A DNA stretch of 64,000 nucleotides, taken from Escherichia coli O157:H7 (GTDB lineage: Bacteria; Pseudomonadota; Gammaproteobacteria; Enterobacterales; Enterobacteriaceae). The position numbers are program-made. This document shows, piece by piece, positions 57,801 through 63,800 of the stretch. Each line of letters begins with the position of its first letter. Within the stretch, counting starts at the first letter, position 1. The stretch lies in NCBI RefSeq assembly GCF_013167455.1, contig NZ_CP038328.1, one strand, 5' to 3'.

Positions 57801-60800
57801 CGTCTGGCGCAGGTACAGAAGCTGCTGCCGGTGGAACTGGCGGCCAGTAAAGGCATTGAGCTGGTGTATGTGAATACCAAAGGGATGAGCGATCCTGTCC
57901 AGATGCTGCGGGCGCTGACAGGAGATGCCGGGTTCGATGACATTTTTGTTTATGCGGCGGTGTCTGCTGTCGTTGAGATGGCTGATGAATTACTGGCGGA
58001 AGATGGCTGTCTGAACTTCTTTGCCGGGCCGACGGATAAAAACTTCAAAGTGCCGTTTAATTTCTACAACGTTCATTACAACAGCACGCACGTCGTCGGT
58101 ACATCCGGCGGTTCAACGGACGACATGAAAGAGGCGATTGCCCTTAGCGCCACAGGGCAGTTACAGCCCTCGTTTATGGTGACCCATATCGGTGGCCTGG
58201 ATGCGGTGCCAGAAACCGTGCTCAATCTGCCGGATATCCCTGGCGGTAAAAAACTCATTTATAACGGCGTGACCATGCCGCTCACTGCCATTGCCGATTT
58301 TGCCGAAAAAGGCAAAACCGATCCGCTGTTTAAAGAGTTGGCGCGGCTGGTTGAGGAAACGCACGGCATCTGGAATGAACAGGCCGAGAAATATCTGCTG
58401 GCACAATTTGGCGTTGATATCGGGGAGGCCGCGCAATGATGTCCCTGGCGTGGCCATTATTTCGCGTTACGGAACAGGCAGCGTTGGCTGCCTGGCCGCA
58501 AACCGGATGTGGCGACAAAAATAAAATTGATGGCCTGGCGGTCACCGCGATGCGCCAGGCATTAAACGACGTCGCTTTTCGTGGACGAGTGGTTATCGGC
58601 GAAGGAGAAATTGACCATGCGCCGATGCTGTGGATTGGCGAAGAGGTGGGCAAAGGCGATGGGCCAGAAGTCGATATCGCGGTTGATCCCATTGAAGGCA
58701 CGCGGATGGTGGCGATGGGGCAGAGCAATGCGCTGGCGGTCATGGCTTTCGCCCCTCGAGATAGCCTGTTACATGCGCCCGATATGTATATGAAAAAGCT
58801 GGTTGTTAATCGACTGGCTGCCGGGGCGATTGATCTGTCTTTGCCTCTGGCGGACAACTTGCGTGACGTGGCGCGGGCGTTAGGTAAACCGCTGGACAAG
58901 CTGCGCATGGTTACGCTGGATAAACCGCGTCTGAGTGCCGCGATTGAAGAAGCAACACAGCTGGGCGTGAAGGTTTTTGCCCTGCCGGATGGCGATGTCG
59001 CCGCCAGCGTGCTGACCTGCTGGCAGGATAATCCTTACGATGTGATGTACACCATCGGCGGTGCGCCGGAAGGCGTGATTTCTGCCTGTGCCGTTAAAGC
59101 ATTAGGCGGGAATATGCAGGCCGAGCTGATTGACTTTTGTCAGGCCAAAGGGGATTACACGGAAAATCGGCAGATTGCAGAGCAGGAGCGCAAGCGTTGC
59201 AAGGCAATGGGTGTTGACGTTAACCGTGTGTACTCGCTCGATGTACTGGTAAGGGGGAACGATATCCTCTTTAGCGCTACGGGCGTCACGGGCGGCGAGT
59301 TGGTGAACGGTATCCAACAGACGGCGAATGGAGTGCGGACGCAGACATTACTGATCGGCGGCGCGGACCAAACGTGTAATATAATAGACTCCCTGTATTG
59401 ATGGTGATCTATCGGAAGACCAATGGCGACGCTGTCAGAAGATGATGTGCTTGAGCAACTGGATGCACAGGACAATTTATTTTCATTTATGAAAACTGCG
59501 CATTCTATTTTGCTCCAGGGGATACGCCAGTTTCTGCCGTCGCTGTTTGTCGATAACGATGAAGAGAGCGTCGAATATGCAGTGAAGCCGTTACTCGCCC
59601 AAAGCGGCCCGCTTGACGATATTGATGTTGCACTGCGTTTGATTTATGCGCTGGGGAAAATGGATAAATGGCTGTACGCCGATATCACGCATTTTTCCCA
59701 GTACTGGCATTACCTGAAAGAACAGGATGAAACGCTCGGATTTGCCGATGACATGACTTGGGATTTTATCAGCAACGTCAATAGCATAACCTGCAATGCG
59801 ACGCTCTATGACGCGTTGAAAGCGATGAAGTTCGCCGATTTCGCCGTCTGGTCAGAGGCGCGTTTTAGCGGAATGGTCAAAACGGCGCTGACGCTGGCAG
59901 TAACGACCACCTTAAAGGAATTAACGCCGTGAAAATTGAATTAACGGTGAATGGGCTGAACGTGCAAGCGCAGTACCATGATGAAGAGATAGAACGCGTG
60001 CATAAACCGTTGCTGCGTATGCTGGCGGCCTTACAGACGGTAAATCCGCAGCGCCGAACCGTGGTTTTTCTTTGCGCTCCGCCGGGGACGGGTAAATCTA
60101 CCCTAACCACCTTCTGGGCATATCTCGCGCAACAAGACCCGGAGCTGCCCGCTATTCAGACGCTCCCGATGGATGGTTTTCACCATTACAATAGCTGGCT
60201 GGATGCGCATCAATTGCGCCCCTTCAAAGGCGCACCAGAGACATTTGACGTTGCGAAACTGGCGGAAAATCTGCGCCAGGTCGTGGAAGGGGATTGTACG
60301 TGGCCGCAGTACGATCGACAAAAGCATGATCCTGTTGAAGATGCGTTGCACGTTACCGCACCAATAATCATCGTCGAAGGAAACTGGCTATTGCTGGATG
60401 ACGATAACTGGCGCCAGCTAGCGCAATTTTGTGATTTCTCGATCTTTATCAATGCGCCAGCTACTGCGTTGCGGGAACGACTGGTGGGGCGCAAGCTGGC
60501 GGGAGGGTTATCGCTGGCAGACGCAGAAGCTTTTTATGACCGTACCGACGGGCCGAATGTTCGCCGGGTGCTGGAAGAGAGTCTGCCTGCAAATTTGACC
60601 TTAATGATGACCGCTACGGGTGAATATCGTCTGGTGGATTAATGTTCCTGATTAGACCATCTTCCAGTCGCACCACACGAGAGAAATGACGCCGGGTAAA
60701 TGCGGCGTCATGACTGATTGCTACGACGCTCGTGCCTCGCTGGCGGCACTTCTCCAGCCAGCTTTCAAACACGCTCAACCAATTTTCGTCAAAATCCCGA

Positions 60801-63800
60801 CTCGGCTCGTCCAGCAGCAATAGTGGCGGAGAGAGTGCTTCCAGGCAGGCGACGGCGACCATCCGTCGCTGCGCACTATGCAGATCCAACGGGTGCGCGC
60901 TGGCAGTGTCTGCTAACTGACAACATTGCAGGGCAGCATGGGTACGTTGAGTGATTTCATCCGCCGGGCATTTTTGCAGTTTCAAACCAAATGCGATCTC
61001 GTCAGCGACGGTGCTGTGAAAAAGTTGGTTTTCCGCTTCCTGAAACAGTACGCCAATCTTTGCCGCGCGCTGGCGGTTTTTCAGGTTTTTCATCGCCTGT
61101 TGTTGCAGCATAACCGTACCGGCTGTGGGCGTAAGAAGACCTGCCATTACTCGTAACAGCGTCGATTTCCCTGCGCCATTGTCGCCGGTCAACGCCAACC
61201 ATTCACCTTGTTTGAGTTGCAGAGAAATGTCGCAAAGACAATCCGTTGCCGCGCCAGGCCAGCGATAAGATATCTGATTTAACGTTAACATAGTGGCTGG
61301 AGCGCTCCGTTTTGCAATTGCCACGCTTGCTGGCAGTAGTTCAGGAAAGGTGTGCGATGACGTTCAAAAAGAATAATCAGCGAACCACGTTCAAACGCCC
61401 AGTGTTGTAAGCGCTGCAACAGCATTTCGCTGGCCTGCGGCGTCAGGCGGCTAAAGGCTTCATCAAGAATTAATAGCTTTGGCTGCATCGCGATGGCGCA
61501 GGCGATGACCACGCGCTGTGTCTCTCCACCGGAGAGTGTTGCCGGGTGACGATGGCGCAACGGCTGGCACTCGGTCAGAGTCAGGGCGGCATCAATCCGC
61601 GCCATAATCTCTGCTTCAGCAAGACACAGATTTTCTGGCCCAAAGGCAACTTCTTCTTCCACGCTAAAGGTACAGCCGGAGAGCTGCAAATAGGGCGATT
61701 GCTGGACGAGCTGGATGGTGGCGGATTGTTCATTAAGCGGGAGATGCCCAATGGGCGTACCGAGGAGCGTCCCCGTGCCTGTTATCTCTCCTGGCAGAAA
61801 GTCCGGATACCAGCCCGCCATCAGCTGTGCCAGCGTACTTTTGCCACTGCCGTTGTCACCAAAGATGGCGACCATCCCCGGTTTGACATAGTGAAAGTCA
61901 TAACAGAACGGAGGATGCGTTGAGTGTGTCGGGCAATAACGGAACTGTTCTAACGTAACCATATCCACGCTCCGAATTCTGTCAGCATCAGCAAGATCAT
62001 GGTGTAACGCGCTACGCGTTGTAGGGTGCTATCGGCTGGTGCCCACAACGTTGTTCGTCGGTTGTGGATCCGAAATGCCCGCATATCCAGCGCCGCACCA
62101 CGGACAGCAAGATCGTTTAGCGCATTGTGTGTTAGCGGAATAGTTAACGCGGGCATCGCACGTAAACGCTGATACCAGCCCTCATCCAGCGGCACGCCGC
62201 GGGCACGCTGCGCTTCATGAATAATCGCTAATTGCCGTTTTAACTGCTCAACGACCAATAACGGCCCGGCAAACAGATAAGCGACGCCCGGCGGCAGGCG
62301 AGAAGCAAACAGAGCGCGGATAAAACATTGCACGGGGACGTACTGCATCCACAACTGTGAGGTTGAAACAATCGCCAGAATCCGCAACCAGAGCGTAATA
62401 GCATGCGTCCAACGCTCCGGCGAACGCGGCGTGCCGCTTAGCCATTCTGTTAGCCAGCCACCGTGTACCAGCCACAGCCCGGCTCCCAGCGAGAACATCA
62501 GCCAGACGACATATTTTGCCCGCCGCCGCGTGGCCTTTAGCGCAATAAGGCAAAAAAAGGTCGCCGCGCTATAGATCGGCAAAATGGTCTGCGCGGGCAG
62601 GATAAGCGTGGTGCAGGCCGCCAATGCCCATAGTGTTAATGAGGTAAATGGATGCATTTAGCGCACGGCAGCCATTGCCGGAAAATGGCGCGTGGTGCGA
62701 ATCGGCAGCTGGCGCAGTAAAAGCCAGACAATCACCGCTGTAAGAGTTTTATCGACCAGGTTCGCGCCTATCACCGTAATCGCCACCGACTCCACCAGGT
62801 TTTGCCCCATCGAGTGCATCCAGGCAACGAACAAATCGGCTCCGCTACCGGTGACACCGCCGAACAGCGCAGTACGCAGCGGTACAGCGACGACCGTTAC
62901 CGCAAGCGTAATAATCACGCCGCTGACAACGACTTTTGGCAGGGTGCGAAACCAACCCGCTCGCGCCAGCCAACCGGCGACCAGGCCGATGACCATCGCG
63001 ACGGGGGCAAAAGCGGCAGCGATCGGGTCGGTCAGTAATCCCCAGAGTAAATTGGTCAGTAAGCCGGTCAGCATCCCGATCACCGGACCAAGCAGTACCG
63101 CGCTAATAAGTGTGCCGATGGAGTCGAGAAATATAGGTAATTTGACCATGCTGGCCAGTTGCCCGCCGATCATATTGATGGCGATAGATATAACGATCAA
63201 CACCAGTGCCTGACTGGAAAAGTGGCTACGCGCCATAAGAAAACCTCTCTGAAAGTAGTTATTTAACGGGGGAAATATGCAACTCGTCGTAACCAGAAAG
63301 CGCGCAAGGTTGGCGGCTAAACGCCAGTTCCTCAAGGCTACCGATCACCAGTTCAAGCGTGGTCCGCACGGTACAGCCGGGCATCATATGACCGCCAAGC
63401 ATCGTGCCGTGTGGATCGGAAACGCAGAGATGAAGATGCTCACCACTCTGTTCCAACGTGCCGTTTAGTGAGATCACTTCGAATGTACCGTTCAGGAGCG
63501 TGGTGCCTTCTTGCCCGGCATAGCGCAAGGCGATGTCAGTCAGGCTACCGGTACAGCCTGCAATCCAGGCGGCATGAAGTTGCTGCTGCTGTGCAAAAGC
63601 GTGTAGCTGGGAAAAAACTTCCTGCCCGGGGAGGAGGCGCAGTGCGTAAAAGCGTGCGGAGGAAGAATATGGGTAGGGCAATGTCATCATTGGAGTACTC
63701 CGAAACTCGGACGTATTACGGATAATATCGACGCTGCATCAGTCATATTCTGATATAAGTCAGGGTTTGTGACGGCACAACGAAAAGATTTTGCTACGCT

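Follow-up and report, generated by a model that had tools for sequence, protein, structure and literature searches.

Within a 64,000-nucleotide stretch of DNA from Escherichia coli O157:H7 (assembly GCF_013167455.1, contig NZ_CP038328.1; 'the window'), five closely packed, intact open reading frames (ORFs) occupy positions 60614-63690 of the minus strand and encode a PPC/DUF296 protein, the S component and the probable T component of an energy-coupling factor (ECF) module, and a pair of ATP-binding cassette (ABC) ATPases. The cluster is the published O island 119 (OI-119), a 3.12-kb island of five genes, z4267-z4271, and its first gene, z4267, is lmiA (Liu et al., mBio 2020, PMC7667037). The results presented below indicate, with high probability, that OI-119 is an ancestral five-gene operon, lmiA-ecfS-ecfT-ecfA1-ecfA2, whose products would be LmiA and an ECF-type ABC importer of the dedicated, self-contained kind (group I).

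The assignment to OI-119 follows from gene content and sequence: the published description (same locus, a DUF296 protein, two 'hypothetical' proteins, and two ABC ATP-binding proteins) matches the cluster gene by gene with identical sequence, the published PhoP box upstream of lmiA occurs exactly once in the window, and positions 59900-64000 are 100% identical to E. coli O157:H7 chromosomes. With start codons as in RefSeq, the genes, in operon order, are lmiA (z4267; 63259-63690; 143 aa), S (z4268; 62658-63236; 192 aa), T (z4269; 61950-62657; 235 aa), A1 (z4270; 61285-61962; 225 aa), and A2 (z4271; 60614-61291; 225 aa); lmiA and S are 22 nt apart, S and T abut with 0 nt between them, T and A1 overlap by 13 nt, and A1 and A2 overlap by 7 nt, and all five ORFs start with ATG and have no internal stop codons. 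Mechanical ORF calls begin S, A1, and A2 farther upstream, at TTG or GTG codons (62658-63335, 61285-61968, and 60614-61324; 225, 227, and 236 aa), but the shorter ATG starts are backed both by RefSeq and by cross-species alignments. The original prediction of five packed minus-strand genes with these domains is confirmed by the ORFs and the domain assignments. The cluster does not share the strand of yggC: yggC (59929-60642) lies on the plus strand, convergent with A2, and overlaps the 3' end of A2 by 29 nt. The locus is already known: it is catalogued, studies of its lead gene exist, the Salmonella counterpart has been crystallised, and in RefSeq the products are named PPC domain-containing DNA-binding protein, ECF transporter S component, energy-coupling factor transporter transmembrane component T, and, twice, ABC transporter ATP-binding protein. 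As a discovery, a locus that is known, named, and annotated carries little weight.

The four genes downstream of lmiA have the composition of an ECF module, as originally predicted. S is a small integral-membrane protein of the six-helix S fold: the model obtained from an alignment to 35 distant relatives has a predicted local distance difference test (pLDDT) score of 93, and a profile of the S family recovers FolT (E=1.9e-9). S scores 32.5 bits against PF12822, narrowly above the cut-off of 30.7. Classification with hidden Markov models, which the original prediction had proposed, assigns neither membrane protein to a non-ECF family and gives CD3073 (NCBIfam NF045596) as the best curated family for S, as for all 36 sampled relatives; at 134-135 bits, under the equivalog cut-off of 180, CD3073 is the nearest family of S, and S is not an equivalog-level member. 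T is more divergent, with 20.5 bits against Pfam CbiQ (cut-off 25) and no NCBIfam match. In single-sequence searches of the PDB, neither S nor T gave an ECF match, and profiles were needed; a 19-sequence T profile matched EcfT (4HZU_T) over residues 108-204 with E=1.4e-4, and residues R120 and R153 of T are invariant across genera. We conclude that T probably belongs to the EcfT scaffold family. None of the five operon genes encodes an extracytoplasmic binding protein, and the gene content is the same at the 55 loci described below.

The two remaining products supply the pair of EcfA/CbiO-type ABC ATPase domains of an ECF importer. A1 scores 77 bits and A2 97 bits against PF00005; the top NCBIfam matches are ECF_ATPase_1 for A1 and ECF_ATPase_2 for A2, with cbiO also among them, all below cut-off. 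Across 54 homologs, A1 keeps the Walker A motif, Q-loop, LSGGE signature, and Walker B motif and has Arg in place of the H-loop His, and A2 keeps the Walker A motif, Q-loop, Walker B motif, and H-loop (ISHD) and has LHSAQ as its signature. In a head-to-tail dimer, this pattern would pair the Walker A, Walker B, and H-loop of A2 with the LSGGE signature of A1 in a consensus ATP site, and would pair the Walker A and Walker B motifs and non-canonical H-loop of A1 with the LHSAQ of A2 in a degenerate site, and the A1/A2 heterodimer therefore appears to be asymmetric. A degenerate second ATP site is normal in many working ABC heterodimers.

Comparison with known ECF systems places the module near the dedicated, group I type. 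As in BioMNY and CbiMNQO, a single operon encodes S, T, and short ATPases, and a soluble binding protein is lacking. Unlike in BioMNY and CbiMNQO, the ATPases are not a homodimer but come from two different genes, with one site that appears degenerate; S resembles neither BioY nor CbiM; and an additional cytoplasmic protein, the PPC protein, is encoded by the first gene. The structurally characterised ECF complexes of Lactobacillus delbrueckii and L. brevis are of group II, in which one shared EcfAA'T module serves many S components. Identity to ECF-FolT of L. delbrueckii (5D0Y, 5D3M) and to the L. brevis complexes (4HUQ, 4HZU) is only 18-22%, a level that permits no substrate inference. Relatives of S in the CD3073 family occur in S-T-A-A modules or as S-T fusions, and those sampled at 48% identity or less have no PPC gene.

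A scan with the S protein, using one genome per species, yielded 55 loci, and the order lmiA-S-T-A1-A2 is the same at every one of these loci that has enough flanking sequence. In 34 species of Enterobacteriaceae, the cluster adjoins epd and is divergent from epd-pgk-fbaA, the other flank often being yggC-fumE-glpX-yggP; the measured lmiA-epd spacer is 358-395 bp (~370 bp), in species including E. albertii, E. whittamii, Citrobacter, the Klebsiella oxytoca group, Kluyvera, Atlantibacter, and Trabulsiella. Protein identities across those species are 84-99% for S and 67-92% for LmiA, of the same order as those of neighbouring core genes. The Salmonella locus examined (L021) ends 147 bp upstream of S and shows the yggC-side flank only. 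Salmonella Typhimurium STM3071-STM3075 is the orthologous operon, matched here through S and the downstream genes (S of S. diarizonae is 92% identical); Salmonella has no LEE and thus no published LmiA target. The Salmonella S-component gene, STM3072, contains the sequence TGGCCCATTGAATGCATC, listed as a binding site in a sigma-54 ChIP-chip study. In Buttiauxella sp. B2 (L040), the order is fbaA-pgk-epd-yggC-fumE-glpX-yggP followed by lmiA-S-T-A1-A2; epd and yggC are thus direct neighbours, as they are in K-12, with the ECF module retained beyond yggP. The five genes also keep together, at other chromosomal sites, in Proteus, Morganella, Providencia, Budvicia, Limnobaculum, and Aeromonas, and the GC-rich genome GCA_006335145.1 has the order PCC-S-CbiQ-ABC-ABC, with S 59% and LmiA 43% identical. 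The PPC gene accompanies S only down to approximately 59% S identity; the sampled S homologs with 48% identity or less are without it. On this evidence from gene order, the PPC gene is a fixed part of the module in Enterobacterales, in Aeromonas, and in one GC-rich lineage, and is not an oddity of this locus.

Within E. coli, the cluster is one of two common states of the yggC-epd interval. Among 5426 complete E. coli genomes, 3317 (61%) carry the cluster, defined as presence of at least 80% of the region, and 2088-2092 (38.5%) have the K-12 junction; all five products are annotated in the E. coli matches listed, sampled down to 95% DNA identity. In a K-12 genome (O16:H48), yggC is followed directly by epd-pgk-fbaA after a 284-bp spacer, in agreement with the original prediction, and no identical cluster is present at that position. 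The two haplotypes differ from ~60380 to ~63840, that is, from the last third of yggC to approximately 130-150 nt upstream of the lmiA ATG. In the alignment of K-12 with O157, identity is ~70% from approximately nt 470 of yggC onward, 133 nt of K-12 then stand opposite 3267 nt of O157 with which they cannot be aligned, and homology restarts 221 nt upstream of the epd ATG, with weak additional homology over GGAATAAA..CCACA; the difference is not a clean insertion or deletion. The first 150 aa of O157 YggC are 93% identical to those of K-12 YggC (locus L002, 5030-5743), and the last ~87 aa are only ~65% identical. The C-terminus of K-12 YggC is 56-68% identical to that of all enterobacterial YggC proteins examined, and this equal distance marks the K-12 allele as the foreign-looking one. 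K-12-type yggC thus seems to be a mosaic with a 3' end that is possibly foreign; among the YggC proteins of the compared loci, all at 56-68%, no donor was identified. From these comparisons, the K-12 form is most simply read as the derived state, a deletion combined with a foreign yggC 3' end. Approximately 20 E. coli genomes match neither main haplotype. In one sequence, NZ_CP180597.1, only 63672-64000 of the window matches (at 869889-870217), and the annotated feature beneath is cmtA, which suggests a larger deletion that removed yggP through OI-119 and joined cmtA to the epd upstream region.

The synteny in 34 species, the lack of mobility signatures considered below, and the odd 3' end of K-12 yggC together argue that the K-12 form is derived and the cluster ancestral; as judged from these comparisons, the presence of the operon beside epd is the ancestral state in Enterobacteriaceae, and the K-12-type lineage has lost it.

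The region upstream of lmiA carries conserved elements that suggest how the operon is expressed. Upstream conservation is confined to Enterobacteriaceae and takes the form of short blocks resembling DNA sites. A riboswitch, for which the original prediction had recommended a search, was considered and rejected: Rfam in E-value mode returned nothing at E<=1 for 60000-64000, and the leader is not conserved beyond Enterobacteriaceae. The sole conserved structure of the leader is a 13-nt hairpin or palindrome, TCCGA-GTT-TCGGA (63699-63711, minus strand), over the lmiA Shine-Dalgarno sequence (GGAG); it is kept in all 34 species of Enterobacteriaceae, where Superficieibacter shows a single double (compensatory) change, but the lmiA upstream regions of Proteus, Morganella, Budvicia, and Aeromonas lack it. 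A simple sigma-70 scan of the region gave nothing above chance, and the promoter model therefore rests on cross-species spacing. The predicted -10 hexamer of a proximal promoter, TATTAT (63722-63727, minus strand), appears as TAnnAT at fixed spacing in 34/34 species, and a palindrome, CTGAyTTAtATCAG (63750-63763, minus strand; xTGA-N6-TCAx), is likewise present in 34/34 species. The distance from the start of the palindrome to the start of TAnnAT is exactly 36 nt in all 34, while the distance to the ATG varies by 25 nt. For a predicted transcription start 7 nt past the hexamer, the palindrome would be centred at -41.5, which is the geometry of class II CRP/FNR activation. We predict that the operon is driven by a class II promoter of the CRP/FNR type, with FNR the most likely activator. 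Such a site would fit published low-oxygen induction: in the study of Bergholz et al., ECs3799, ECs3800, and ECs3802 rise 2.3-2.9 once oxygen is limiting and fall in the same expression cluster as the FNR-regulon genes pflB, adhE, narK, yfiD, hyp, and nrdDG, and, according to PMC11481890, the Salmonella ortholog, a 'putative five-gene ECF operon', undergoes anaerobic activation. Given the 22-nt gap between lmiA and S, lmiA would be co-transcribed with the pump genes.

A second input, from PhoP at low Mg2+, has been reported to activate lmiA through the box GACTTACGTCACGTTTT (PMC7667037). The single exact match in the window lies at 63848-63864 (minus strand), 158-174 nt upstream of the lmiA ATG, and overlaps a second conserved TGA-N6-TCA palindrome at 63853-63866 (CTGACTTACGTCAC). 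This block is conserved across genera, and K-12, which has no lmiA, keeps it as TTATCTGACTCACATCAC; its retention there implies that the element may act at the divergent epd promoter, or at the promoters on both sides. A strongly conserved CTGAAACGCTTCAGC box at 63925-63939, in the epd-side part of the intergenic region, is a candidate Cra (FruR) operator for epd-pgk-fbaA.

LmiA itself is a clear PPC-domain protein. It scores 98.7 bits against PF03479 (cut-off 25), covering profile positions 1-116 of 117; its residues 2-140 align to the Salmonella structures 2HX0 and 2NMU (E=7e-75; Salmonella homologs are 79-82% identical), and it also matches the solved PPC proteins 2P6Y and 2DT4. Three residues, His85, His87, and His101, are invariant in 54 homologs, which suggests metal or ligand binding. 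LmiA is acidic, with an isoelectric point (pI) of 5.5 (4.8-6.65 in homologs), and contains only 6 Lys and Arg residues in total. Plant AHL proteins share the PPC domain (PF03479) with LmiA, and their DNA-binding element is the AT-hook, not the PPC domain. LmiA contains no AT-hook (neither an RGR nor a GRP motif is present) and so falls outside the AHL type; as it is also acidic, a 'DNA-binding' label inherited from AHL proteins cannot by itself explain the reported DNA binding.

That DNA binding has been documented in several ways. LmiA reportedly binds a 17-bp site within the LEE1 (ler) promoter of the enterocyte effacement locus (LEE) and activates ler, on the evidence of electrophoretic mobility shift assays with competition, chromatin immunoprecipitation-quantitative PCR, DNase I footprinting, and motif mutagenesis, and its three-His site has been proposed to bind Zn (Liu et al., PMC7667037). 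The regulon has since been extended to gadA, gadBC, and biofilm genes, with direct binding at gadA and gadBC (PMC11657066). According to an alternative reading, LmiA would mainly act on the compound brought in by the pump, as a metal-dependent enzyme or a ligand-binding partner, rather than as a transcription factor, and its effects on LEE, gad, and biofilm genes would be indirect. Several observations are in keeping with this: in all lineages examined, also those that have no LEE, lmiA is tied to the ECF genes; the protein is acidic and has no AT-hook; the three-His site resembles a catalytic or structural metal site; and no match to the 17-bp LmiA-type motif with up to 3 mismatches was found in the window, and hence none near the operon of LmiA itself. 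The binding and mutagenesis data at LEE1 (PMC7667037) and the direct binding at gadA and gadBC (PMC11657066) oppose it, as does the deletion of the four pump genes, which did not copy the lmiA phenotype and thereby places that phenotype outside import through the pump under the conditions used. We regard this alternative as unlikely. The fixed linkage of lmiA to the pump in bacteria without LEE implies that the original job of LmiA concerns the transporter: LmiA would regulate the pump, sense its ligand, or, as a metal-dependent partner, act on what is imported. LmiA could thus be a regulator or sensor of the module or could act on its cargo, and the published DNA-binding data favour the former. 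A homolog search with LmiA listed matches of at least 64% identity, a range that does not reach PPC proteins in non-ECF contexts, and literature searches on the functions of other bacterial DUF296 proteins, or on E. coli without ECF transporters, returned nothing useful.

A second alternative concerns the cargo: the pump may be an importer of cobalt or another transition metal, of the CbiMNQO/NikMNQO kind, with LmiA as a metal-sensing regulator that acts through its three-His site. In favour of a metal, a thesis that treats STM3071 as a cobalt-transport regulator has suggested that the Salmonella operon imports Co2+ (as cited in PMC11481890); T matches Pfam CbiQ, albeit under cut-off, and the ATPases match cbiO-type models; His85, His87, and His101 of LmiA are invariant and proposed to bind Zn; and the operon is induced alongside anaerobic genes, nik among them. 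S, however, has neither the conserved metal-ligating N-terminus of CbiM/NikM proteins nor a CbiN/NikN partner. The metal-importer alternative is therefore improbable. Because S belongs to an orphan, CD3073-like branch of vitamin-type S components, without a CbiM-like conserved N-terminus and without a CbiN partner, family membership leads us to favour a small organic micronutrient over a metal as cargo. Genomic context offers no further clue: the contexts of distant S homologs comprise ordinary S-T-A-A modules, S-T fusions, and lone S genes among unrelated neighbours, and the ORFs flanking the cluster outside Enterobacteriaceae vary by locus, with no conserved metabolic partner. Distant relatives of S include three S paralogs around one fused 684-aa double ATPase on a metagenome contig (L058), a 491-aa protein that fuses S and T (L065), and an S-T pair followed by a fused 493-aa double ATPase (L066).

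A third alternative concerns origin. The OI-119 papers treat the locus as horizontally acquired, and neither describe the four downstream genes as an ECF transporter nor assign them a function, whereas we find lmiA fixed in an ancestral module; the original prediction, similarly, took the cluster to be a strain-variable insert. By this account, the cluster is a pathogen-specific island that was inserted between yggC and epd in the O157 lineage. The account draws on the absence of the cluster from K-12 and the definition of the locus as an O island, on the statement that lmiA was horizontally acquired (PMC7667037), and on a GC content of 55% for the cluster as compared with 50% for the whole window. 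The cluster is indeed variable among strains, but the same five genes stand at the same site, divergent from epd and with core-like protein identities, in 34 species, and a distribution over 61% of complete E. coli genomes is not restricted. No tRNA, integrase, or flanking repeat was found around the cluster, and GC content changes gradually, without an abrupt step, the adjacent yggP-yggC segment already being at 52.5%; the cluster thus has none of the restricted distribution, mobility features, and compositional break of a genomic island. Moreover, the distal portion of the region upstream of lmiA is still present in K-12, and of the two yggC 3' ends that of K-12 is the aberrant one. The island account is thus largely refuted and very improbable, and, on these comparative grounds, both the term 'insert' and the literature's 'acquired by horizontal transfer' are poorly supported. 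A fourth alternative, that the cluster is a decaying, non-functional remnant, which would explain its frequent loss in E. coli (38.5% of complete genomes), the divergence of T and both ATPases from curated models, the degenerate ATP site, and the lack of an adherence phenotype for z4268-z4271 (PMC7667037), is extremely improbable, in view of five intact ORFs in O157, annotation of all products among the matches listed down to 95% DNA identity, invariance across genera of the consensus-site catalytic motifs and the T arginines, published transcription and regulation of the genes, and the commonness of a degenerate second site in working ABC heterodimers.

Several points weigh against the reading of OI-119 as an ancestral importer operon with an oxygen-responsive promoter. 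Literature searches gave no transport, substrate, or ATPase measurement for this system, and S and both ATPases score under the NCBIfam equivalog cut-offs. The suggestion of Co2+ as cargo of the Salmonella operon, made in the thesis cited in PMC11481890, conflicts with our preference for an organic cargo. The discriminating base of the upstream palindrome is C (rarely G), as compared with T in FNR sites and G in CRP sites, the transcription start is itself predicted, and a search for the FNR-site pattern by Bergholz et al. found none. The argument for co-transcription of lmiA with the pump is one of spacing only. Finally, deletion of z4268-z4271 changed neither adherence nor LEE expression (PMC7667037), and the pump is thus dispensable for the published role of LmiA.

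The importer reading, to which we nonetheless assign high probability, would have the following mechanism, by analogy with the ECF family. The small six-helix S component would bind a low-molecular-weight substrate on the periplasmic side, without a soluble binding protein; S would topple against the T scaffold, the two arginine-bearing coupling helices of which would sit in the A1/A2 heterodimer; and binding and hydrolysis of ATP by the asymmetric A1/A2 dimer would reset the cycle. The operon would be turned on at low Mg2+ through PhoP, as reported, and, as predicted here, in the absence of oxygen through the FNR-type promoter.

The results correct the evolutionary reading of OI-119, from acquisition by a pathogen to an ancestral unit lost in K-12, and this correction bears on the interpretation of LmiA as a 'virulence regulator'. 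They tie LmiA to an orphan transporter module, they provide, in the predicted class II FNR-type promoter, a model that accounts for published low-oxygen induction where no site had been found, and they identify K-12 as a natural null background for studies of import through the pump. A further proposal, which we offer tentatively and consider doubtful, is that the ancestral main role of LmiA is that of a cytoplasmic, metal-dependent partner, either ligand sensor or cargo enzyme, of an orphan ECF importer that is switched on in the anoxic gut. If this proposal were true, the 'horizontally acquired virulence regulator' would be an old metabolic module, with the imported compound, or the ligand state of LmiA, feeding into control of LEE and acid resistance; the identity of the cargo would then define a new gut signal for virulence of enterohaemorrhagic E. 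coli and would provide the first function for a bacterial PPC/DUF296 protein.

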